Source: Escherichia phage 310Ecol104PP. From it: a stretch of DNA of 64,000 nt. A program made the position numbers and the translations under genes. The stretch is from sequence record OR062946.1, one strand, 5' to 3'. Shown one piece after another: positions 1 through 40,673 of this stretch. How positions within the stretch are numbered: the stretch's first letter is position 1; each line of letters opens with the position of its first letter. Under the pieces are notes generated by a model. The model was not told the origin of the DNA. It did no database searches and worked only from the letters and a program-made list of their open reading frames with translations.

Positions 1-396
1 TATGGTGAAACTGGTAAATCTCAATATGCTGCTGAAATAAAGGGGTATTTAGATGATTGGTATCGTTCTACGTTAATTGAACCTTTATCTCCGGAAGACG
101 CAGCTAAAAATAAAACACTATTTGAGAAAATGACATCGAGTTTAACTAACGTTCTAGTAGTTTCAAACCCGACAATTTGGATGGTGAAAAACTTTGGTGC
201 AACATCTAAGTTTGATGGAAAAACGGAAATATTTGGCCCATGCCAAATACAGAGCATCAGATTTGATAAAACACCTAATGGTAACTTTAACGGATTAGCT
301 ATTGCTCCAAACCTCCCTAGTACATTTACTCTTGAGATTACTATGAGAGAAATTATTACGTTAAACCGTGCTTCTTTATATGCGGGGACTTTTTAA
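1..396 (+). CDS. 48: baseplate tail-tube cap protein gp48, C-terminal part (start lies upstream of window)
   Basis: Open frame from position 1 with no stop until 394-396; sits immediately upstream of gene 54 as in T4; stop overlaps the gene 54 ATG by 1 nt. Confidence 0.6.
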   Translation, partial: YGETGKSQYAAEIKGYLDDWYRSTLIEPLSPEDAAKNKTLFEKMTSSLTNVLVVSNPTIWMVKNFGATSKFDGKTEIFGPCQIQSIRFDKTPNGNFNGLAIAPNLPSTFTLEITMREIITLNRASLYAGTF

Positions 397-3801: not shown

Positions 3802-5898
3802 TTATCCTTGAACGAACTTGTAAGGCATGTTTGTAATATCTATGCAAGACGCAATAATTCCAAGAGATGATTCTACTTTCTGTTTAATATTTGATGAAAC
3901 AAATGATGCAAAGTCAACTCTGTCTTCTATTTCAATATCACCTGTCATTGCAACTACTTCGCCGGTTTCCATTAAATGGTCTCCGTCATAGATTACCGAT
4001 TCAGTGAGTTCTTCTGTGGTCATAACTTCAGCTTGAATGAGTTTTGTATTATTAGACGTGGTTCCGTCATTATTAGAAGCATCAGTTATTTTATTAACTT
4101 TAACCATCAATCCGCGCGGTAGAATAACTTCAGCTTCTGTTGCTATTCCGAGACTTCCTGGATATACAACATTAACTTTATGAGCTCCATCAATTGCCCA
4201 TCCTATTTGAACTTTAACGTATTCAGGATTTTCTTTATACGCTCTTATTTCGTTTGGATTAATAGTTATTCCTTCTTCATTTTTATCAACCGTTAATTCG
4301 TTACGAGCTTCTGGTTCTAAAAGACCAATACCAGCATGTGTAATTCCAAAACGCCCAAAAATGATAGGAGTTAAAGAAGTAGATACAAAATTTCTGAAAT
4401 AGAACACTTTATTTTTAACTAGTGCTTCGTATATAGGAGCAGTCATACTTTGAGCACGATAAACTGTGATGCCTTCCGGTATGCGGTCACCATTTTCAAA
4501 AGCTGAATCTAAGTTATTTATAGCAGATTCAATTTCTTTTTCACTCATTACATCATATCGTTCTGGATTGTAACGACCTAAAAGAAGATTATTAATGTCA
4601 GTATATCCTGAACCACAATACTCTCTAATGCCGCGCTTTTGTGATGGAGTATATTTAGAACCATCACGGGCAATAGTAATATCAATCATTGGACCTGCAC
4701 CAATTCCAGAAAAACTATAAATCATTCTTTTGAGGAATTTAGTTTTTGCTGCGTTCCAGGAATTTTTAGTCATTTCTTCCCAGACTTCATCTGGCTGCCC
4801 TTTACGAGTTTTATTATGTTTATCAAGCCAATTATCTTTATATTCTTCAAAGAGTTGATTAACAGCTGCTGCGTATTTCTCTAAACATTTTATTGAAGTA
4901 GTTGGTTCATTTTTAATCGCATTAAGAATTACATCTTTAATTTTTTCAGAAACTTCATTAACCTCACTTTTTGAAAAGAATTTATAGTCATAATGAAGTT
5001 CATTCGCAGTTCCTTCGGCAATAATTTTTGCTGCCTTAGTTTTAGAAGCTAATGAATTAATTCCAAGCTTCATTTCTTCTGCTTCGGGAATTAAAGGAGC
5101 GGTAGCAGGTTTATTGAAATTAGCTGCGGTAGATTCATACTTCTGGAATAATTCACTTTCAAATCTAGAAGATTCCAATGATTGACTTTGCGCAATTGCT
5201 CTACGGGAAATTTTAACTTTAACGATTACAGCTTGGTCAGAACGTTTATCATTTTCTTGTGCAATAGATGCTGCAATTGCCTCATTTTTAGTTACTTGAG
5301 CTCCAGTATCTTTATTGATATAAACATCGCCGACTTTCGATTCAACTTTAGTAAAGAGCTCGGTACTAATTTCCGGAACTCCTGGAATGTCTTCTAGTGA
5401 TACATTTTTGCGATGTATAAGAATATATGCATACTTTTTATCATAATCCCAGAGTTCCTTAAGAAGGACGTATCTGCCACCTGAACGACTACGGATAAGT
5501 CTATCAGCAATAACTTGAATTTGTCGAGCTTGACCAGCGGTTTTAGACTTAAGAATACGAAGCATACAAGCATCAATTTTATACTGACGCATTGTTTGCA
5601 TTGCAACAGTAAAAACTGAATTGATATAATTAATTGGGCTTGGACCGAGACCTTTTAATTTAGCAATTGAACCTTTGGCAGTTAATGTAAAAGGAACAAT
5701 ATGCATCATTTTATCGCCCATCTTTAAATCGCGATTAGTATCACCTCCAGATGTATAGGTGCATAAACGAAAGCCTGGTTGTTCAATTGCATCATCAACA
5801 CGAACTGAAAAAATTTGCGGTATTTTCTTCTTTGGATTTAAGTTTGTAATCGGAAGAGTAGTATCTTCGTCAAATAATTCTGTAATAAGTTCCATCAT
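3802..5898 (-). CDS. Alt-family ADP-ribosyltransferase (paralog B)
   Basis: 698 aa; shares about 230 aa N-terminal region and the YRAQ...STSL...EAEVILP motifs with paralog A but has a diverged central region; late promoter TATAAATA about 20 nt upstream. Confidence 0.8.
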   Translation of the reverse strand: MMELITELFDEDTTLPITNLNPKKKIPQIFSVRVDDAIEQPGFRLCTYTSGGDTNRDLKMGDKMMHIVPFTLTAKGSIAKLKGLGPSPINYINSVFTVAMQTMRQYKIDACMLRILKSKTAGQARQIQVIADRLIRSRSGGRYVLLKELWDYDKKYAYILIHRKNVSLEDIPGVPEISTELFTKVESKVGDVYINKDTGAQVTKNEAIAASIAQENDKRSDQAVIVKVKISRRAIAQSQSLESSRFESELFQKYESTAANFNKPATAPLIPEAEEMKLGINSLASKTKAAKIIAEGTANELHYDYKFFSKSEVNEVSEKIKDVILNAIKNEPTTSIKCLEKYAAAVNQLFEEYKDNWLDKHNKTRKGQPDEVWEEMTKNSWNAAKTKFLKRMIYSFSGIGAGPMIDITIARDGSKYTPSQKRGIREYCGSGYTDINNLLLGRYNPERYDVMSEKEIESAINNLDSAFENGDRIPEGITVYRAQSMTAPIYEALVKNKVFYFRNFVSTSLTPIIFGRFGITHAGIGLLEPEARNELTVDKNEEGITINPNEIRAYKENPEYVKVQIGWAIDGAHKVNVVYPGSLGIATEAEVILPRGLMVKVNKITDASNNDGTTSNNTKLIQAEVMTTEELTESVIYDGDHLMETGEVVAMTGDIEIEDRVDFASFVSSNIKQKVESSLGIIASCIDITNMPYKFVQG

Positions 5899-33367: not shown

Positions 33368-34486
33368 ATGGAAAAATTTATGGCAGAGTTTGGACAAGGA
33401 TATGTCCAAACGCCATTTTTATCGGAAAGCAATTCAGTAAGATACAAAATAAGTATAGCGGGTTCTTGCCCGCTTTCTACTGCAGGACCACCATATGTTA
33501 AATTTCAGGATAATCCTGTAGGAAGTCAAACATTTAGCGCAGGACTTCATTTAAGAGTTTTTGACCCTTCCACCGGAGCATTAGTTGATAGTAAGTCATA
33601 TGCTTTTTCGACTTCAAATGATACTACATCAGCTGCCTTTGTTAGTTTCATGAATTCTATTTCAAGCAATAGACTTGTTGCTATATTAACTAACGGAAAG
33701 GTTAATTTTCCTCCTGAAGTAGCATCTTGGTTAAGAACCGCCGGAACGTCTGCTTTTCCATCTGACTCTGTATTGTCAAGATTCGACGTATCATATGCTG
33801 CTTTTTATACTTCTTCTAAAAGAGCTATTGCATTAGAGCATGTTAAACTGAGTAATAGAAAAAGTACAGATGATTATCAAACTATTTTAGATGTTGTATT
33901 TGACAGTTTAGAAGACGTCGGAGCTACCGGGTTTCCAAGAAGAACGTATGAAAGCGTTGAACAATTCATGTCAGCGGTTGGTGGAACTAATAACGAAATT
34001 GCGCGTCTACCGACTTCAGCTGCTATAAGTAAATTATCTGATTATAATTTAATTCCTGGTGATGTTCTTTATCTTAAAGCTCAGTTATATGCTGATGCTG
34101 ATTTACTTGCTCTTGGAACTACAAATATATCTATCCGTTTTTATAATGCATCTAACGGATATATTTCTTCAACACAGGCTGAATTTACTGGGCAAGCTGG
34201 GTCTTGGGAATTAAAGGAAGATTATGTAGTTGTTCCAGAAAACGCAGTAGGATTTACGATATATGCACAGAGAACTGCACAAGCTGGCCAAGGTGGCATG
34301 AGAAATTTAAGCTTTTCTGAAGTATCAAGAAACGGCGGTATTTCAAAACCTGCTGAATTTGGCGTCAATGGTATTCGTGTTAATTATATCTGTGAATCTG
34401 CTTCACCTCCGGATATAATGGTACTTCCTACGCAAGCATCGTCTAAAACTGGTAAAGTGTTTGGGCAAGAATTTAGAGAAGTATAA
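33368..34486 (+). CDS. 35: long tail fibre hinge protein gp35
   Basis: 372 aa, same length as T4 gp35; translationally coupled to gene 34. Confidence 0.88.
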   Translation: MEKFMAEFGQGYVQTPFLSESNSVRYKISIAGSCPLSTAGPPYVKFQDNPVGSQTFSAGLHLRVFDPSTGALVDSKSYAFSTSNDTTSAAFVSFMNSISSNRLVAILTNGKVNFPPEVASWLRTAGTSAFPSDSVLSRFDVSYAAFYTSSKRAIALEHVKLSNRKSTDDYQTILDVVFDSLEDVGATGFPRRTYESVEQFMSAVGGTNNEIARLPTSAAISKLSDYNLIPGDVLYLKAQLYADADLLALGTTNISIRFYNASNGYISSTQAEFTGQAGSWELKEDYVVVPENAVGFTIYAQRTAQAGQGGMRNLSFSEVSRNGGISKPAEFGVNGIRVNYICESASPPDIMVLPTQASSKTGKVFGQEFREV

Positions 34487-34516: not shown

Positions 34517-34524
34517 TTATAAAT
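34517..34524 (+). promoter_or_regulatory. T4 late promoter TATAAATA for gene 36
   Basis: Exact consensus about 25 nt upstream of ATG. Confidence 0.7.
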
Positions 34525-34548
34525 ACTATTAAAATAAAGGGGCATACA

Positions 34549-35238
34549 ATGGCTGATTTAAAAGTAGGTTCAACAACTGGAGGCTCTGTCATTTGGCATC
34601 AAGGAAATTTTCCATTGAATCCAGCCGGTGACGATGTACTCTATAAATCATTTAAAATATATTCAGAATATAATAAACCACAAGCTGCTGATAACGATTT
34701 CGTTTCTAAAGCTAACGGTGGCACAAAGTCTCAGGGTTTCCAAAAAGAAGTAGAATTTAGAGAAGGCGTTAAGATTTCTGCAACGTTTTCTGGCGGTTCA
34801 GACCTGAACGGGTTATATTCTGGCAATGGAGATGGAGCTTCCAGAGAAAAAGCTAACATGGATTTACGTTCATGGTACGGCATTGGTATTTGGAACACAT
34901 GTACGGGTGATGGGATCCAGGGACGCACAATCTGGTTTAATGCCAGGCGTGGTACAGTTGAAACAGTTGGCGATATTGTTTCAGACCGACAAGTTATTTC
35001 TAATGCTTCAGGACCGACCGGCCCAGCACACTTAACTCGTAAAGATTATGTTGATGGAGCAATAAATACTGTTACAGCAAATGCGAACTCTAGAGTGCTA
35101 CGGTCTGGTGACACCATGACAGGTAATTTAACAGCGCCAAACTTTTTCTCGCAGAATCCTGCATCTCAACCTTCACATGTTCCACGATTTGACCAAATCG
35201 TAATTAAGGATTCTGTACAAGATTTCGGCTATTATTAA
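34549..35238 (+). CDS. 36: long tail fibre distal connector gp36
   Basis: 229 aa (T4 gp36 is 221 aa); position between 35 and 37. Confidence 0.85.
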
Positions 35239-35246
35239 GAGGACTT

Positions 35247-38200
35247 ATGGCTACTTTAAAACAAATACAATTTAAAAGAAGCAAAACCGCAGGTGCACGT
35301 CCTGCTGCTTCAGTATTAGCCGAAGGTGAATTGGCTATAAACTTAAAAGATAGAACAATTTTTACTAAAGATGATTCAGGAAATATCATCGATTTAAGCA
35401 TTTCTGCTGGTGGTAATATCAGTGGAAATGTAACTATTGATGGAACTTTACGCGTCAATGGACCAATAAACAATTTTGGAAATTTTTCCACAAGTGGTAC
35501 TATTACGGCAAGTAATATTGTTTCTGCTACAGTATTCAGATCAACATCCGGTTCATTTTATACAAGAGCAATAAATGATACTGCAAATGCCCATCTTTGG
35601 TTTGAAAATACAAATGGCTCAGAACGTGGCGTTTTATATTCAAAACCGCAGTCTGAAAATGAAGGCGTAATTACAATGCGTGTTCGTCAAGGAACCGCTG
35701 CGGGAGCTCAAAATTCAGAATTTCATTTCATTTCTACTGATGGCGGTATCTTCCAGGCACGCAAATTAACTGCTTTAACTTCTATTAGTACACCAACTAT
35801 TAGTGTTAATTTAATTAATCATGATTCTAAAGCCTTTGGACAATACGATTCACAATCATTAGTTCAGTATGTTTATCCTGGAACCGGTGAAACAAATGGT
35901 GTAAACTATCTTCGTAAAGTTCGAGCTAAATCAGGTGGCACTATGTGGCATGAGCTTTGTACTGCTCAGACTGGCCAGGCTGATGAAATGTCTTGGTGGA
36001 CAGGTAATACTCCATCATCTAAACAATATGGCATTCGTAATGACGGACGAATGGCAGGCCGTAATAGCCTTGCATTAGGTACATTCACTACAAATTTCCC
36101 GTCTAGTGATTATGGCAACGTCGGTGTAATGGGCGATAAATATCTTGTTCTCGGTGACACTGTAACTGGCTTGTCATACAAAAAAACTGGTGTATTTGAT
36201 CTAGTTGGCGGTGGATATTCTGTTGCTTCTATTACTCCTGACAGTTTCCGTAGTACTCGTAAAGGTATATTTGGTCGTTCCGAGGACCAAGGCACCACAT
36301 GGATTATGCCTGGCACTAATGCCGCTTTCTTGTCTGTTCAAACGCAAGCTGATAATAACAATGCTGGAGACGGCCAGACGCATATTGGGTACAATGCTGG
36401 CGGTAAAATGAGTCATTATTTCCGCGGTAAAGGCAAAACTAATATTAATACTCAGGAAGGTGTAGACGTTAACCCGGGTATATTGAAGTTAACCACCGGC
36501 GGTGAAAGTATTAGCTTTAATGCCGCAACTGGAAGTATTAATTCTACATTAGCTTTTCGTCTTAATAAAGGCATAATTATTGATGGACCTGATAATCAGG
36601 GATTCCAGTTTAACGCCCCGACGGCTGCAGATGGTACTAGAAGTATATACTGGAACAGTGGTACTCGCGCAGGTCAAAACAAAAGCCCTGTTACAGTTAA
36701 AGTGTGGGGTAATTCATTTAACGCATCGGGCGATCGTGCTCGTGAAACGGTTTTTGAAGTAGCTGATGGGCAAGGTTTCCATTTTTATTCTCAACGTGTA
36801 GCTCCTGCGCCTGGTTCTACCGTCGGACCTATTCAATTTCGAGTTAATGGTGGTTTATTAACTTCTGGTGGTATTACATCATCTGGTTCTATTGTTACTG
36901 AATCAAGTTTAGTTGCCAATAATGGCATGTCAGTAAATGGTCAGGCTAAATTTGGCGGAACAGCAAACGCACTGAGAATTTGGAACGCTGAATACGGTGT
37001 TATTTTCCGTCGTTCTGAAAGTAACTTTTATATTATTCCAACCAATCAAAATGAAGGCGAAAGTGGAGACATTCACAGCTCTTTAAGACCTGTGAGAATA
37101 GGATTAAACGATGGCATGGTTGGGTTAGGAAGAGATTCTTTTATAGTAGATCAAAATAATGCTTTAACTACGATAAACAGTAACTCTCGCATTAATGCCA
37201 ACTTTAGAATGCAATTAGGACAAAATGCTTATATAGATATTGAGGCTTCTGATGGAGTTCGCCCAACAGGTTGTGGTTCATTTGCATCTCAGAATGACGT
37301 AAACGTCAGAGCTCCAATTTATATGAATATAGAGCGTACTGCTACTTCTGAATACATTCCTATTGTTAAACAACGGTATGTAAAAGGTGATAGTACTTAT
37401 TCTATTGGTACATTGATTTCTCAGGGAGACTTCCGCGTTCATTATCACCAGGGTACTAGTACTACCGGTACTGATTTAAGCTGGGAATTCCGTCGCAATG
37501 GTGATTTCCGCGCGGCAGGTAAAATTATTGCCGGTGCTGCTACTTTTGGCACTGATGGTAATATCACGGGCGGTTCAGGAAACTTTGCTAACCTGAATAC
37601 CACATTAAATCGTAAGGTAAATTCCGGATTTGTAACATACGGTGCAACGGCCGGATGGTACAAATTCGCTACAGTAACGATGCCACAATCTACTTCTACT
37701 GTTTCATTTACTATAACTGGTGGTAAAGGATTTAATACCGGACTGTTTACACAATGTGCTATAACAGAAATTGTTCTTCGTACTGGTAATGACCGCCCAG
37801 CAGGTTTAAACGCTGTGATGTATACCAGAACAGCTGCAGGTCTTACTGATATTGCTGTAGTTAATACCTCAGGAAATACATATGATATCTATGTTGAATC
37901 TGGTACTTATGCCAATCAATTAGCTTATACATGGCATACAGTTGATAATGCTACAGTAGAAGTTATCGGCGCTTTTGGTCCTACTCAAGACCCGGTAGAT
38001 TCTTTGCCGGCTGATTATGTTAAAGGCCAAGTAGCTAACATGCTTAACAACCTGGTAAACACAGGTAAAGCAAAACGTTATGTAGCAGAATCTGAAATTG
38101 CTATTAATAACCAAACGGGTCTTCGTATTACGAGTAATTCTGATAGATCAGGTTCTAATTCCGTTTTATTTCGAAATGACGGTGGAAGCTTCTATATTTT

Positions 38201-39170
38201 ACTGACTGACAAAAACTCTTCAGACGGCGATAATAAAGCAACTGAAGGCGATTGGAATGGAAAACGACCGTTTTCAATCGATATGACTGCTGGTACTGTT
38301 CGTCTTGGCGAAAATACTTCTTTTGATAAAGATATTACTATTAATGGAAACATTAATTCACGAGTTAAAGCTGCCGGACAATGGAGTGTTAGCTTTTCTG
38401 CTATTTCAGATGTGACTCGCGACAATTCTGCATTCTTAGCGAATACGGGTGGCATTTCCAAGACAAGTCAAGCTTATTACCCGCTATTTTCTGGATACAG
38501 TTTTTTAACTGACGCGGGTTATCGACAATCGTTTGAATTTGGATGGTTAGGTGTTTCTGGTACTTGGCGCCAAGGCATTATTCGCATGCGTGGTGACAAC
38601 GCATCGGGGCAACAGGCTCGTTGGACTTTTGATATGGATGGAACATTTTATGCTCCTATACTATCATGCGGATCTGCGAGAGCATTCGGTGTCAATACAT
38701 CAAATGGTCTCGGTGGAAACAGTATAACATTTGGTGATAGCGATACCGGTATTAAGCAAAACGGCGATGGATTATTAGACATTTATGCGAATGGTGTGCA
38801 AACGTTCCGTTTCCAGAACGGTGATTTATACTCATATAAAAATATAAATGCCCCAAACGTTTATATTCGTTCTGATATTCGCTTAAAATCTAATTTCAAA
38901 CCTATCGAAAATGCACTTGATAAAGTTGAAAAACTCAATGGTGTCATTTATGATAAAGCTGAATATATCGGTGGAGAGGCAATTGAAACTGAAGCGGGTA
39001 TTGTGGCTCAAACGTTACAAGACGTTTTACCAGAAGCCGTCCGTGAAACAGAAGACAGCAAGGGTAATAAAATACTCACTGTTTCTTCTCAAGCCCAGAT
39101 TGCTCTTCTGGTTGAAGCTGTGAAAACGCTTTCTTCTCGTGTAAAAGAACTTGAATCTAAACTTATGTAA
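35247..39170 (+). CDS. 37: long tail fibre distal subunit gp37, T2-type with C-terminal intramolecular chaperone domain
   Basis: 1307 aa; N-terminus [22 protein letters not shown]...; C-terminal SDIRLKSNF...[15 protein letters not shown] resembles self-cleaving chaperone domains of tail spikes. Confidence 0.9.
38871..39167 (+). other. C-terminal intramolecular chaperone / autoproteolysis domain of gp37
   Basis: Motif S-D-I-R-L-K at the predicted cleavage serine, followed by a coiled-coil-like tail. Confidence 0.6.
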
Positions 39171-39171
39171 A

Positions 39172-39189
39172 AGAGGGCTTCGGCCCTCT
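39172..39189 (+). terminator. hairpin AGAGGGC-UUCG-GCCCUCU after gene 37
   Basis: Perfect 7 bp stem with UUCG loop; weak U tract, so possibly a stabiliser rather than a strong terminator. Confidence 0.45.
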
Positions 39190-39201
39190 AAGGATTTTTA
39201 A

Positions 39202-39984
39202 ATGGCAATTGTAGGTGTTCCTGGCTGGATTGGCGAATCTGCCGTGAATGAAACTGGACAACGTTGGATGGATGCTGCGATGAGAGAAGTTCGTGTTTCA
39301 GTTCCCGGTTGGATGAGCTCAATGGCTGGGCAATCTAAAGAGATTCATTATAGCATTGGTGCTAGTAACTCTTACAATAAAGACACTCTTATTAACTGGA
39401 TGAAAGCACAAGGATCTACTCCGGTAGTAATTACTATCACGGGTAATATTGTTTCCCAATCTACTGGCGTTCCTTGTCTTGACTTCCCTAGCTCGTTAAC
39501 TAATGCATATGTTACGTTGATCATTAACTCCGGTGTGACTGTCTACGGTCGCGGTGGCAATGGTGGTAGTAACGCTGCTGGTGCTGCTGGTGGTAACGCA
39601 ATCAATAACGCTATCGGTACACGTCTACGAATTACAAATAACGGTGCAATCGCTGGAGGTGGCGGCGGCGGTGGCGGCGGTAACAGGGGTAAACTAATAT
39701 TTGGTGGTGGCGGTGGTCGCCCATTCGGTGCTGGTGGGTCTTCCTCTCATATGAGTTCCGGTGCAACTGCTGGTACTATTTCCGCTCCTGGTAAAGGATC
39801 TGTTGGTGAGGGGTCTCTTAGTGCATATACAGGCGGTTCGGGTGGTAATGTCGGTGCTGCTGGAGGAAGATGTAATATTCGCGGTCAAGGATCAGAATAT
39901 AACGGCGGTGCGGCCGGTAAAGCTGTTACTGGTAATGCTCCAACTTGGACTAAGGTTGGTACAATATATGGTTCAAGAGTATAA
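39202..39984 (+). CDS. 38: receptor-recognising adhesin gp38 (T2-type, glycine-rich motifs)
   Basis: 260 aa with several poly-Gly runs (GGGGGGGGG, GGGGG, GGSGG) separating short variable segments. Confidence 0.85.
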   Translation: MAIVGVPGWIGESAVNETGQRWMDAAMREVRVSVPGWMSSMAGQSKEIHYSIGASNSYNKDTLINWMKAQGSTPVVITITGNIVSQSTGVPCLDFPSSLTNAYVTLIINSGVTVYGRGGNGGSNAAGAAGGNAINNAIGTRLRITNNGAIAGGGGGGGGGNRGKLIFGGGGGRPFGAGGSSSHMSSGATAGTISAPGKGSVGEGSLSAYTGGSGGNVGAAGGRCNIRGQGSEYNGGAAGKAVTGNAPTWTKVGTIYGSRV

Positions 39985-40016
39985 TTTTTGAATAAATATC
40001 CTTAAAAGGAGGGTCT

Positions 40017-40673
40017 ATGGCAGCACCTAGAATATCATTTTCGCCCTCTGATATTCTATTTGGTGTTCTAGATCGCTTGTTCAAAGATAACGCTACCGGG
40101 AAAGTTCTTGCTTCCCGGGTAGCTGTCGTAATTCTTTTATTTATGATGGCGATTGTTTGGTATAGGGGAGATAGTTTCTTTGAGTACTATAAGCAATCAA
40201 AGTATGAAACATACAGTGAAATTATTGAAAAGGAAAGAAATGCACGCTTTGAATCTGTCGCCCTGGAACAACTCCAGATAGTTCATATATCATCTGAGGC
40301 AGACTTTAGTGCGGTGTATTCTTTCCGCCCTAAAAACTTAAACTATTTTGTTGATATTATAGCATACGAAGGAAGATTACCTTCAACAATAACTGAAAAA
40401 TCACTTGGAGGATATCCTGTTGATAAAACTATGGATGAATATATAGTTCATTTAAATGGACGTCATTATTATTCTGACTCAAAATTTGCTTTTTTACCAA
40501 CTAAAAAGCCTACTCCCGAAATAAACTACATGTACAGTTGTCCATATTTTAATTTGGATAATATCTATGCTGGAACGATAACCATGTACTGGTATAGAAA
40601 TGATCATATAAGTAATGACCGCCTTGAATCAATATGCGCTCAGGCGGCCAGAATATTAGGAAGGGCTAAATAA
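40017..40673 (+). CDS. t: holin T
   Basis: 218 aa; MAAPRISFSPSDILFGVLDRLFKDN...; single N-proximal TMD and large periplasmic domain; same length as T4 T. Confidence 0.92.
   Translation: MAAPRISFSPSDILFGVLDRLFKDNATGKVLASRVAVVILLFMMAIVWYRGDSFFEYYKQSKYETYSEIIEKERNARFESVALEQLQIVHISSEADFSAVYSFRPKNLNYFVDIIAYEGRLPSTITEKSLGGYPVDKTMDEYIVHLNGRHYYSDSKFAFLPTKKPTPEINYMYSCPYFNLDNIYAGTITMYWYRNDHISNDRLESICAQAARILGRAK

Follow-up and report, generated by a model that had tools for sequence, protein, structure and literature searches.

A probable T2-type long tail fibre tip, with a predicted self-cleaving gp37 chaperone and a gp38 adhesin, in Escherichia phage 310Ecol104PP

Described fibre tips and the layout of the locus

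Salmonella phage S16 is described as an OmpC binder. Phage PP01 is likewise described as binding OmpC (PMC12892980), and the gp38 proteins of both phages are receptor-binding proteins located at the fibre tip (PMC6851490, PMC12892980). Cleavage of S16 gp37 exposes the docking surface for gp38 (PMC7917993), and three conserved tryptophans of S16 gp38 fill pockets on the gp37 tip (PMC6851490). The gp37 of phage T2 reportedly undergoes proteolytic processing and carries gp38 as its cap (PMC3157838), and T2 uses FadL/OmpF (PMC3157838, PMC8594841). This gp37/gp38 tip module is long-established textbook biology; the additions made here are the assignment of both partners in the gp37-gp38 joint to the T2 subtype, the sharing of loops B-D with phages Bas45 and FL18, and the fine-scale mosaicism of gene 38.

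The DNA analysed, referred to as the window, is a stretch of 64,000 nucleotides of Escherichia phage 310Ecol104PP (OR062946.1), in which genes 36-37-38-t follow the same order as in T2 (AP018813; Table 1). The region very probably codes for the distal part of a long tail fibre of the T2 type, comprising a self-cleaved, chaperone-folded gp37 and a gp38 tip adhesin, with OmpA as the most likely receptor. The bounds given to this module in the original prediction, 38871-39984, are correct to the base, 38871 being the first base of the gp37 Ser1209 codon in the S-D-I-R-L-K motif (translation of 38871-39173) and 39984 the last base of the gp38 stop codon (ORF coordinates). Both proteins are already present in GenBank as exact matches from Escherichia phage 310Ecol104PP, gp37 as WLY86435.1 and gp38 as WLY86436.1; the latter is annotated as 'hypothetical protein' in the deposited record, a label that can be corrected. 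The region matters mainly for annotation and host-range prediction: the module marks the phage as a gp38-adhesin (T2-type) Tequatrovirus, and an OmpA prediction helps to choose or engineer therapeutic phages. From 39990 onward, a stretch that covers holin gene t, the DNA is 98-100% identical to T2, T6 and Bas45.

An Rfam scan of the whole window found nothing. A putative late-promoter consensus lies 5′ of gene 36, and no other exact + strand match occurs in the vicinity of the fibre genes; since the window contains no excess of this motif (7 found against 9.2 expected), no claim on transcription is made beyond this site. The terminator-like hairpin between genes 37 and 38 is followed on its 3′ side by the Shine-Dalgarno sequence AAGGA (39190-39194), seven bases 5′ of the gp38 ATG. 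Its minimum free energy of -13.4 kcal/mol is not unusual against shuffled sequences (z only -1.4), and it was rejected as a significant structure on this basis. Given this ordinary energy, what speaks for the hairpin is the conservation of a stem at its position: it is identical in T2, T-01 and 236Ecol005PP, and T6 carries another stem-forming sequence there, AAGGGGC-TTT-GCCCCTT.

Table 1. Coordinates of the fibre genes, protein domains and sequence elements in the window
Feature	Position	Strand	Basis or remark
gp35	33368-34486		upstream of gp36, gp37
Late-promoter consensus TATAAATA, 5′ of gene 36	34518..34525	+	motif match, putative
gp36	34549-35238		upstream of gp37
Gene 37, long tail fibre distal subunit, 1307 aa precursor	35247..39170	+	ORF; Pfam
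Mature gp37 distal tip, aa 1147-1208, ends NAPNVYIR	38685..38870	+	predicted gp38 docking surface
Predicted autocleavage site Arg1208/Ser1209, NVYIR^SDIRLK	38868..38873	+	alignment
gp37 C-terminal intramolecular chaperone/autoprotease domain, aa 1209-1307, 99 aa	38871..39167	+	Pfam PF13884
C-terminal chaperone helix, aa 1281-1306, 26 residues, predicted trimeric coiled-coil	39087..39164	+	AlphaFold2
Hairpin AGAGGGC-UUCG-GCCCUCU between genes 37 and 38	39172..39189	+	terminator-like match
Gene 38, receptor-recognising adhesin, 260 aa	39202..39984	+	ORF; Pfam, PDB matches, model
gp38 N-terminal attachment domain, aa 1-42	39202..39327	+	Pfam Gp38_N
gp38 central beta-helix, aa 43-115	39328..39546	+	strands in model
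gp38 polyglycine (PGII) sandwich specificity domain	39547..39918	+	entropy profile, loop mapping
Glycine motif GRM1	39547-39567	+
Loop A	about 39565-39582	+
Glycine motif GRM2	39655-39681	+
HVS2/loop B	39682-39702	+
Glycine motif GRM3	39703-39738	+
HVS3/loops C-D	39739-39831	+
Glycine motif GRM4	39832-39867	+
HVS4/loop E	39868-39903	+
T6-like 18-nt patch in loop E, ATTCGCGGTCAAGGATCA, encoding I226 R227 G228 Q229 G230 S231	39877..39894	+	nt alignment
Glycine motif GRM5	39904-39918	+
Holin gene t, conserved right-hand neighbour	40017..40673	+	Pfam Phage_holin_T, E=5e-116

The gp37 precursor and its C-terminal domain

The best tblastn match of gp37 is vB_Eco_T-01 gp37 (92%), and Pfam identifies two domains in the protein, Gp34_trimer (aa 493-617) and Peptidase_S74 (PF13884, aa 1209-1266). 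The latter match covers the full profile (1-58; E=3e-15, 56.7 bits against a cut-off of 22) and places the chaperone domain at the extreme C-terminus, in the last 99 of the 1307 residues, following a tip with homology to the beta-helix of S16 gp37. Ser1209 (38871-38873) and Lys1214 (38886-38888), at the N-terminal boundary of the chaperone domain, form an S-x4-K pair that aligns with the MyRF catalytic residues S587/K592, which correspond to S911/K916 of endoNF (PMC8326128). The serine-lysine pair is essential in MyRF, where the cut falls immediately before the equivalent serine (PMC8326128). Among the 14 proteins in the set of gp37 C-terminal homologues from which conservation was judged, the lysine is invariant and both Ser and Asp are conserved in all those covering the catalytic site. 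Foldseek searches with the chaperone model recovered the MyRF ICA (7dc3, E=9e-6), as well as the endoNF (3gw6) and GA-1 (3gud) chaperones with a probability of 0.99-1.00. These endosialidase and MyRF chaperones (Peptidase_S74; 3GW6, 3GUD, 7DC3) have in common with the gp37 domain a Ser-x4-Lys pair where the domain begins, a core rich in beta structure and a helix at the C-terminus, with a low sequence identity of 14-28%; unlike theirs, the passenger of the gp37 domain is a tail-fibre beta-helix that becomes the docking site for a second protein. The family match, the alignment of Ser1209/Lys1214 and the fold matches thus bear out the original prediction of an intramolecular chaperone at the gp37 C-terminus.

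The predicted autocleavage site, NVYIR^SDIRLK, aligns with the S16 gp37 site DLNVS^SDRRIKK, which was determined experimentally (PMC7917993), and a predicted site in the fPS phages, DVYIR^SDGRLKI, also aligns with Arg1208/Ser1209 (PMC7917993). S16 gp37 carries the same chaperone with its cleavage site at the aligned position (PMC7917993), the domain being 113 residues long in S16 and 99 in the window, and cleavage of the window's gp37 is predicted by analogy with these homologues. Were the domain instead a degenerate, non-cleaving remnant retained on the fibre, it would block the gp38 docking surface (PMC7917993); moreover, its catalytic Ser and Lys are intact, and 98/99 of its residues are identical to T2 gp37, the protein reported as processed (PMC3157838), compared with 42/99 for T6. 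A retained remnant is therefore considered very improbable, and a cleaved chaperone is preferred.

The helix near the end of the domain corresponds to residues 103-128 of the 129-aa C-terminal fragment modelled as a monomer by AlphaFold2, with a pLDDT of about 85-93, and the nine a/d positions of its heptads are T, I, V, V, L and S, L, L, L. In MyRF, trimerisation is driven by the triple coiled-coil into which the equivalent helix assembles (PMC8326128). The coiled-coil that had been proposed to follow the S-D-I-R-L-K motif is upheld as a prediction only, from the modelled helix and its heptads. When the 129 C-terminal residues were used as homologue query only 14 proteins were recovered, giving a shallow alignment and a moderate model with an overall pLDDT of 70.8, falling below 50 at residues 1-28; such poor modelling upstream of the chaperone would be expected for an interdigitated trimer.

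The gp38 adhesin and its joint with gp37

Two Pfam families account for gp38, namely Gp38_N (PF21721; aa 1-42, E=4.4e-18, 65.4 bits against a cut-off of 25) and GP38 (PF05268; aa 47-260, E=1.8e-72, 244.2 bits against a cut-off of 25). Comparison with PDB sequences identified S16 gp38 (6F45_D, E=3.4e-50) and PP01 gp38 (9V85, E=3.5e-35). The AlphaFold2 model of gp38 (pLDDT 93.3, pTM 0.87) folds into a beta-helix followed by a polyglycine-II sandwich, and Foldseek matched it to 6F45_D (E=8e-22, TM 0.80/0.84) and 9V85 (TM 0.88), with no other match at E<1. The adhesins of S16 and PP01 have the same three-domain fold, consisting of attachment helices with three tryptophans, a beta-helix and a PGII sandwich (Foldseek TM 0.80-0.88), although their sequence identity to the window's protein is about 43% and the loops differ. 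The Pfam families, the 6F45_D match and the Foldseek result agree with the earlier identification of gp38 as a T2/S16-type adhesin. Some database records nevertheless call gp38 homologues 'distal long tail fiber assembly catalyst', as would suit a T4-like arrangement in which gp38 is an assembly chaperone absent from virions and gp37 itself binds the receptor. This label is a carry-over from T4 annotation. The Pfam scan of gp38 at E<=0.01 returned PF05268 and PF21721 only, with no tail-fibre assembly protein family and no similarity to the T4 gp38/lambda Tfa chaperone family; in both sequence and fold, gp38 strongly matches the fibre-tip receptor binders of S16 and PP01 (PMC6851490, PMC12892980), and gp37 ends in a cleavable chaperone, not a T4-type needle tip. 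The T4-type reading was rejected on the adhesin families and the S16/PP01 matches, and is left with next to no probability.

In the modelled attachment domain of the gp38 adhesin, Trp9, Trp22 and Trp37 lie just ahead of helices 10-18, 23-29 and 38-41, and W9 and W22 are at least 90% conserved among 88 homologues. This domain is identical to T2 at 43/45 positions, compared with 30/45 for T6, and the mature distal tip of gp37 at 60/62, compared with 15/62 for T6; the tip also aligns with that of S16 gp37 (PDB 6F45_A, E=1.8e-10). At the level of sequence, both the tip of gp37 and the N-terminus of gp38 belong to the T2 subtype, and matched subtypes at this joint have been described as a 'lock and key' (PMC3157838). 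Together with the chaperone, these identities make the designation 'T2-type' in the original prediction literally correct. The remainder of the fibre is more distant from T2, the gp37 shaft being 62% identical (682/1100) and the gp38 specificity domain only 88/145, with HVS2-4 unrelated. The S16 structure suggests that the distal tip of gp37 is the docking surface for gp38 (PMC6851490, PMC7917993), and the presence of gp38 in the virion, at a 3:1 stoichiometry, is likewise predicted from the homologues.

These features suggest a mechanism in which gp37 would first exist as a precursor of 1307 residues, with an intramolecular chaperone in its final 99 (Ser1209-Met1307). Three copies would join through a bundle of C-terminal helices and serve as the template for a trimeric, beta-helical tip, after which the Ser1209-Lys1214 pair would cut the Arg1208/Ser1209 bond and the chaperone would depart. 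Its loss would uncover the ...NVYIR tip of gp37, on which one gp38 would dock by its N-terminal domain of three helices, with Trp9, Trp22 and Trp37. Towards its C-terminus, gp38 would form a polyglycine-II helix lattice from the conserved glycine motifs and display five variable loops to the cell surface; with loops B-D as in OmpA-dependent phages, the primary receptor would most likely be OmpA.

The poly-glycine runs that had been noted between variable segments are readily seen in this part of gp38, where glycine makes up 33% of aa 115-260, including a run of nine (aa 152-160), a run of five (aa 168-172) and further GG pairs. Five conserved glycine-rich motifs alternate with four hypervariable segments, named here according to the GRM/HVS scheme (PMC3157838), and column entropy among the 88 homologues is 0.35-0.9 bits in the GRMs compared with 2.0-2.8 bits in HVS2-4. 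The loops were mapped onto loops A-E of PP01 through the 9V85 alignment (PMC12892980). Comparisons were made with T2, T6, Bas45, RB49, pEJ01, FL12/FL18 and Ac3; K3 and Ox2 were not among the source names returned by the gp38 homologue search or the cluster look-ups.

Receptor assignment and mosaicism of gene 38

The gp38 of Escherichia phage PaulHMueller (Bas45) is 96.9% identical to that of the window over all 260 residues, and loops A-D are identical. HVS2 and HVS3 are also identical to those of FL18, whereas loop A is not. Bas45 depends on ompA, as shown with complementation (PMC8594841), and FL18 is an OmpA-dependent 'type 2' phage (PMC12032242); the OmpA-binding gp38 subgroup comprises Bas45 and the 'type 2' phages FL12/FL18/FL20. 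Exchange of gp38 from HVS2 onward turns a phage from Tsx to OmpA (bioRxiv 10.64898/2026.04.02.716166). Since the window's gp38 has the very loops B-D of Bas45 and FL18, both OmpA-dependent, OmpA is the most likely primary receptor. The proposal that gp37 and gp38 are the primary host-range determinants holds for the primary receptor, but not for host range as a whole: the secondary LPS receptor is determined by the short tail fibres (PMC8594841; bioRxiv 10.64898/2026.04.02.716166), and plaque formation is restricted further by the immunity systems of the host (PMC8594841).

No observation speaks against the identity of the module. The receptor assignment is less secure, because four of the eight substitutions between the window and Bas45 gp38 (I226T, R227Q, Q229N, S231T) are clustered in loop E, where the window has the sequence of Tsx-binders. 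At I226, R227, Q229 and S231, HVS4/loop E differs from both Bas45 and FL18 and equals T6, and the window shares the string N-I-R-G-Q-G-S-E with T6 (Tsx) and with the cluster to which FL23 (Tsx) and RB27 belong. With a T6-like loop E, specificity may move to Tsx, a second receptor may be gained, or the set of accepted OmpA loop variants may change, such that the module would be as described with a receptor other than OmpA alone. Recognition of OmpC by PP01 depends critically on loop E (PMC12892980), and single substitutions are able to switch receptors, as in RB51/RB68, where one loop substitution changed OmpF to OmpW (bioRxiv 10.64898/2026.04.02.716166). Phage PST, a few residues off T6, requires both OmpA and Tsx (PMC3157838), and the combination of HVS2/3 with HVS4 is unique to the window's protein among about 125 cluster representatives. 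However, loops B, C and D make up the bulk of the variable surface and are identical in two phages shown by experiment to depend on OmpA; in T6, HVS2 and HVS3 are not those of the window, leaving loop E as the only one of these segments in common with a Tsx binder, and there is little variation in the loop-E region among the Krischvirus relatives that have this HVS2/3. A receptor other than OmpA alone is judged unlikely, and OmpA is retained as the preferred assignment.

Nucleotide alignments indicate that gene 38 is a fine-scale mosaic. Bas45 DNA is 100% identical to the window across 39690-39779 but only 80-88% across 39360-39500, where the window is Krischvirus-like; Bas45 gp37 is unrelated just upstream of the tip (15/46) and only about 59% identical in the shaft (652/1100). 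The gp38 proteins of Krischvirus (RB49, JSE, pEJ01) are 88-90% identical to the window over aa 8-260, with identical DNA stretches of 147 nt (RB49) and about 150 nt (pEJ01), and in those genomes, unlike in the window, gene 38 is far from gene 37 (PMC3157838). The 147/147 nt match to RB49-type gene 38 spans 39334-39480, in the beta-helix part, and is 100% identical in RB49 and 12 other records, two of which are duplicate RB49 entries. This mosaic illustrates the already proposed idea that conserved segments within gene 38 let its variable loops shuffle, even between genera.

The short patch in loop E is identical to T6 at 17/18 nt, and at 26/27 over AATATTCGCGGTCAAGGATCAGAATAT, and sits in Krischvirus/Bas45-like flanks, of which the upstream one is identical to pEJ01. 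A donor search with 39815-39925 (111 nt) found no record in the phage collection above 91% identity, so a T6-like origin of the patch, which accounts for the four loop-E residue differences from Bas45, rests on the match of 18-27 nt. It is conceivable, though more doubtful than a receptor other than OmpA alone, that gp38 is a natural loop chimera in which OmpA-type loops A-D were combined, via short-patch recombination, with loop E from a T6-like (Tsx-type) adhesin, which could give an altered or dual receptor need (such as OmpA plus Tsx) or acceptance of a wider range of OmpA loop variants. If true, this would be a natural case of a single-loop exchange re-tuning specificity.

Fibre gene cluster and context of the feature

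The feature at 38871-39984, which comprises the C-terminal end of gp37 and the whole of gp38 at the long tail fibre tip, is genuine and not a chance pattern. It runs from base 1 of the gp37 Ser1209 codon, exactly where the S-D-I-R-L-K motif of the original prediction begins, to the final base of the gp38 stop codon. The window comes from a Tequatrovirus genome, and over 24 kb JK1, Kelasse and Shfl2 match it best, at ~95% identity; holin t directly follows gp38 in the gene order. Residue-identical gp37 and gp38 are already in GenBank (WLY86435.1 and WLY86436.1, Escherichia phage 310Ecol104PP), the latter labelled 'hypothetical protein'. Several gp38 homologues are called 'distal long tail fiber assembly catalyst', a name derived from T4 and misleading in this family.

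Coordinates of the fibre genes and holin t, and PP01 loops A-E mapped on gp38
Feature	Position	Strand	Basis
gp35 (hinge protein)	33368-34486	+	ORF calling, Pfam
gp36	34549-35238	+	ORF calling, Pfam
gp37, 1307 aa	35247-39170	+	ORF calling, Pfam
gp38, 260 aa	39202-39984	+	ORF calling, Pfam
holin t	40017-40673	+	ORF calling, Pfam
PP01 loop A on gp38	aa ~122-126		9V85 alignment (PMC12892980)
PP01 loop B on gp38	aa ~162-166		9V85 alignment (PMC12892980)
PP01 loop C on gp38	aa ~180-185		9V85 alignment (PMC12892980)
PP01 loop D on gp38	aa ~200-209		9V85 alignment (PMC12892980)
PP01 loop E on gp38	aa ~225-232		9V85 alignment (PMC12892980)

Elsewhere in the cluster, gp35 (aa 59-128) matches the ILEI domain ('interleukin-like EMT inducer', PF15711, E=1.6e-8), a surprising family name to meet in a protein of a phage fibre. 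The gp37 shaft (aa 493-617; 36723-37097) matches Gp34_trimer (PF21446), a family defined on the proximal half-fibre, so the two half-fibres have a structural module in common. GC skew goes positive over the + strand fibre genes, and G+C reaches 0.43 at 38001-40000 versus ~0.35 in the rest of the window, a rise probably due in part to the GGN glycine codons of gene 38.

The gp37 chaperone domain

The gp37 C-terminus was expected to be an intramolecular chaperone, and it carries a Peptidase_S74 ('chaperone of endosialidase') domain at aa 1209-1266 (Pfam, E=3e-15). Over its last 300 residues gp37 aligns with both the S16 gp37 tip construct (6F45_A, E=1.8e-10) and the ICA domain of MyRF (7DC3), which places Ser1209 on MyRF position 587, S587A in the crystallised protein, and Lys1214 on K592. 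In MyRF, S587/K592 form an essential serine-lysine pair equivalent to endoNF S911/K916, the cut falls immediately N-terminal of S587, and trimerisation is driven by a C-terminal triple coiled-coil (PMC8326128). The S16 cleavage site DLNVS^SDRRIKK (PMC7917993) aligns with NVYIR^SDIRLKS of the window, from which we infer that gp37 would undergo autocleavage between Arg1208 and Ser1209, freeing 99 residues. In a small alignment, the Lys1214 equivalent is invariant across distant homologues and Ser-Asp is kept in all those spanning the site.

In an AlphaFold2 model of the 129 C-terminal residues, the chaperone part is predicted with confidence (pLDDT ~80-93) and the chain ends in a helix (aa 1281-1306) with a heptad pattern, in keeping with the predicted coiled-coil after the motif. 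Foldseek matched this model to the MyRF ICA domain (E=9e-6) and the endoNF (3GW6) and GA-1 (3GUD) chaperones, each at probability 0.99-1.00. The domain is identical to that of T2 at 98/99 residues, and T2 gp37 is reportedly processed by proteolysis before being capped by gp38 (PMC3157838).

The gp38 adhesin and its likely receptor

Pfam identifies Gp38_N (E=4e-18) and GP38 (E=2e-72) in gp38, which matches S16 gp38 (6F45_D, E=3.4e-50) as well as the receptor-binding domain of PP01 gp38 (9V85). A confident model from 88 homologues (pLDDT 93.3, pTM 0.87) resembles only S16 and PP01 gp38 in a search of the PDB (TM 0.80-0.88). Trp9, Trp22 and Trp37, which directly precede three N-terminal helices, correspond to the three tryptophans through which S16 gp38 docks (PMC6851490). 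The poly-glycine runs originally described are present (G9, G5 and several GG pairs; 33% glycine over aa 115-260), and they do separate variable segments: among 88 sequences, the five glycine motifs (GRM) have column entropies of 0.35-0.90 bits, versus 2.0-2.8 bits in the variable segments HVS2 (loop B), HVS3 (loops C-D) and HVS4 (loop E), the layout of Trojet et al. (PMC3157838). The same authors describe gp37 tips and gp38 N-termini as coming in matched subtypes. The term 'T2-type' holds strictly, as both parts are of the T2 subtype by residue identity (gp37 tip 60/62, gp38 attachment domain 43/45, against 15/62 and 30/45 for T6).

In the phage collection the closest gp38 belongs to PaulHMueller (Bas45; 96.9%), a phage whose ompA dependence was confirmed through complementation (PMC8594841). 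HVS2 and HVS3 are also identical to those of FL18, an OmpA-dependent 'type 2' adhesin (PMC12032242), and a phage that uses Tsx becomes an OmpA phage when gp38 is exchanged from HVS2 onward (bioRxiv 10.64898/2026.04.02.716166). These likenesses and the swap result make OmpA the most probable receptor, at moderate confidence. Loop E is a caveat, however: of the eight positions at which gp38 departs from that of Bas45, four are in this loop (I226, R227, Q229 and S231 in the window), and its sequence is that of T6 and FL23/RB27, which bind Tsx. In PP01 loop E is critical (PMC12892980), and a receptor switch can follow from a single loop substitution (bioRxiv 10.64898/2026.04.02.716166).

Adhesins of the gp38 type with OmpA-type loops occur frequently in assemblies of Shigella sonnei and E. 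coli (protein clusters of P0022, 298 members, and P0076), on contigs of 100-430 kb, one annotated as plasmid-borne; possible explanations are phage-plasmids, prophage-like elements and contamination of the assemblies by phage.

Mosaic structure and noncoding elements

Every component of the module is already in the literature, and the feature is correct but ordinary. The cleavable chaperone is established in endosialidases, T2, S16 and MyRF, the monomeric polyglycine-II sandwich adhesin in S16 (2018) and PP01 (2026), the GRM/HVS design since 2011, and receptor prediction by gp38 similarity since 2025-2026. The gp38 allele is closely related to characterised ones and its sequence is already public; its particular loop combination is the sole mildly new element.

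The mosaic structure exceeds the scope of the original prediction. Sliding identity and a mismatch map show the gp37 shaft to be identical to vB_Eco_T-01 up to ~38600 and 38640-38730 to 236Ecol005PP, followed by a T2-type tip, chaperone and gp38 attachment domain (~95-100%). Within gene 38, 39334-39480 is identical at 147/147 nt to RB49 (L003, about 5118-5264) and 100% identical in 12 other records, two being duplicate RB49 entries. RB49-type Krischvirus belong to another genus and carry gene 38 distant from gene 37, so this identity indicates that adhesin segments were recently exchanged between genera. Gene 38 nt 481-600 match Bas45 exactly and nt 511-660 match Krischvirus pEJ01 exactly. Over an 18-nt patch (39877-39894) 17/18 positions agree with T6, and the 3′ end returns to the Tequatrovirus type. 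The glycine motifs contain short direct repeats (12-14 nt) rich in GGN. The mosaic agrees with the published view in which the variable loops are shuffled by way of conserved segments in gene 38.

Between the gp37 stop and the gp38 Shine-Dalgarno lies a C(UUCG)G-type hairpin (AGAGGGC-UUCG-GCCCUCU, 39172-39189; Shine-Dalgarno 39190-39194), identical in T2, T-01 and 236Ecol005PP, whereas T6 has another stem-forming sequence there. Its folding energy was not unusual versus shuffles; speculatively, it may stabilise the transcript or keep gp38 expression below that of gp37 (3:1 stoichiometry). Directly upstream of holin t (39985-40016), AATAAATA matches the T4 late-promoter consensus at 7/8 positions and is kept in T2, T6 and Bas45.
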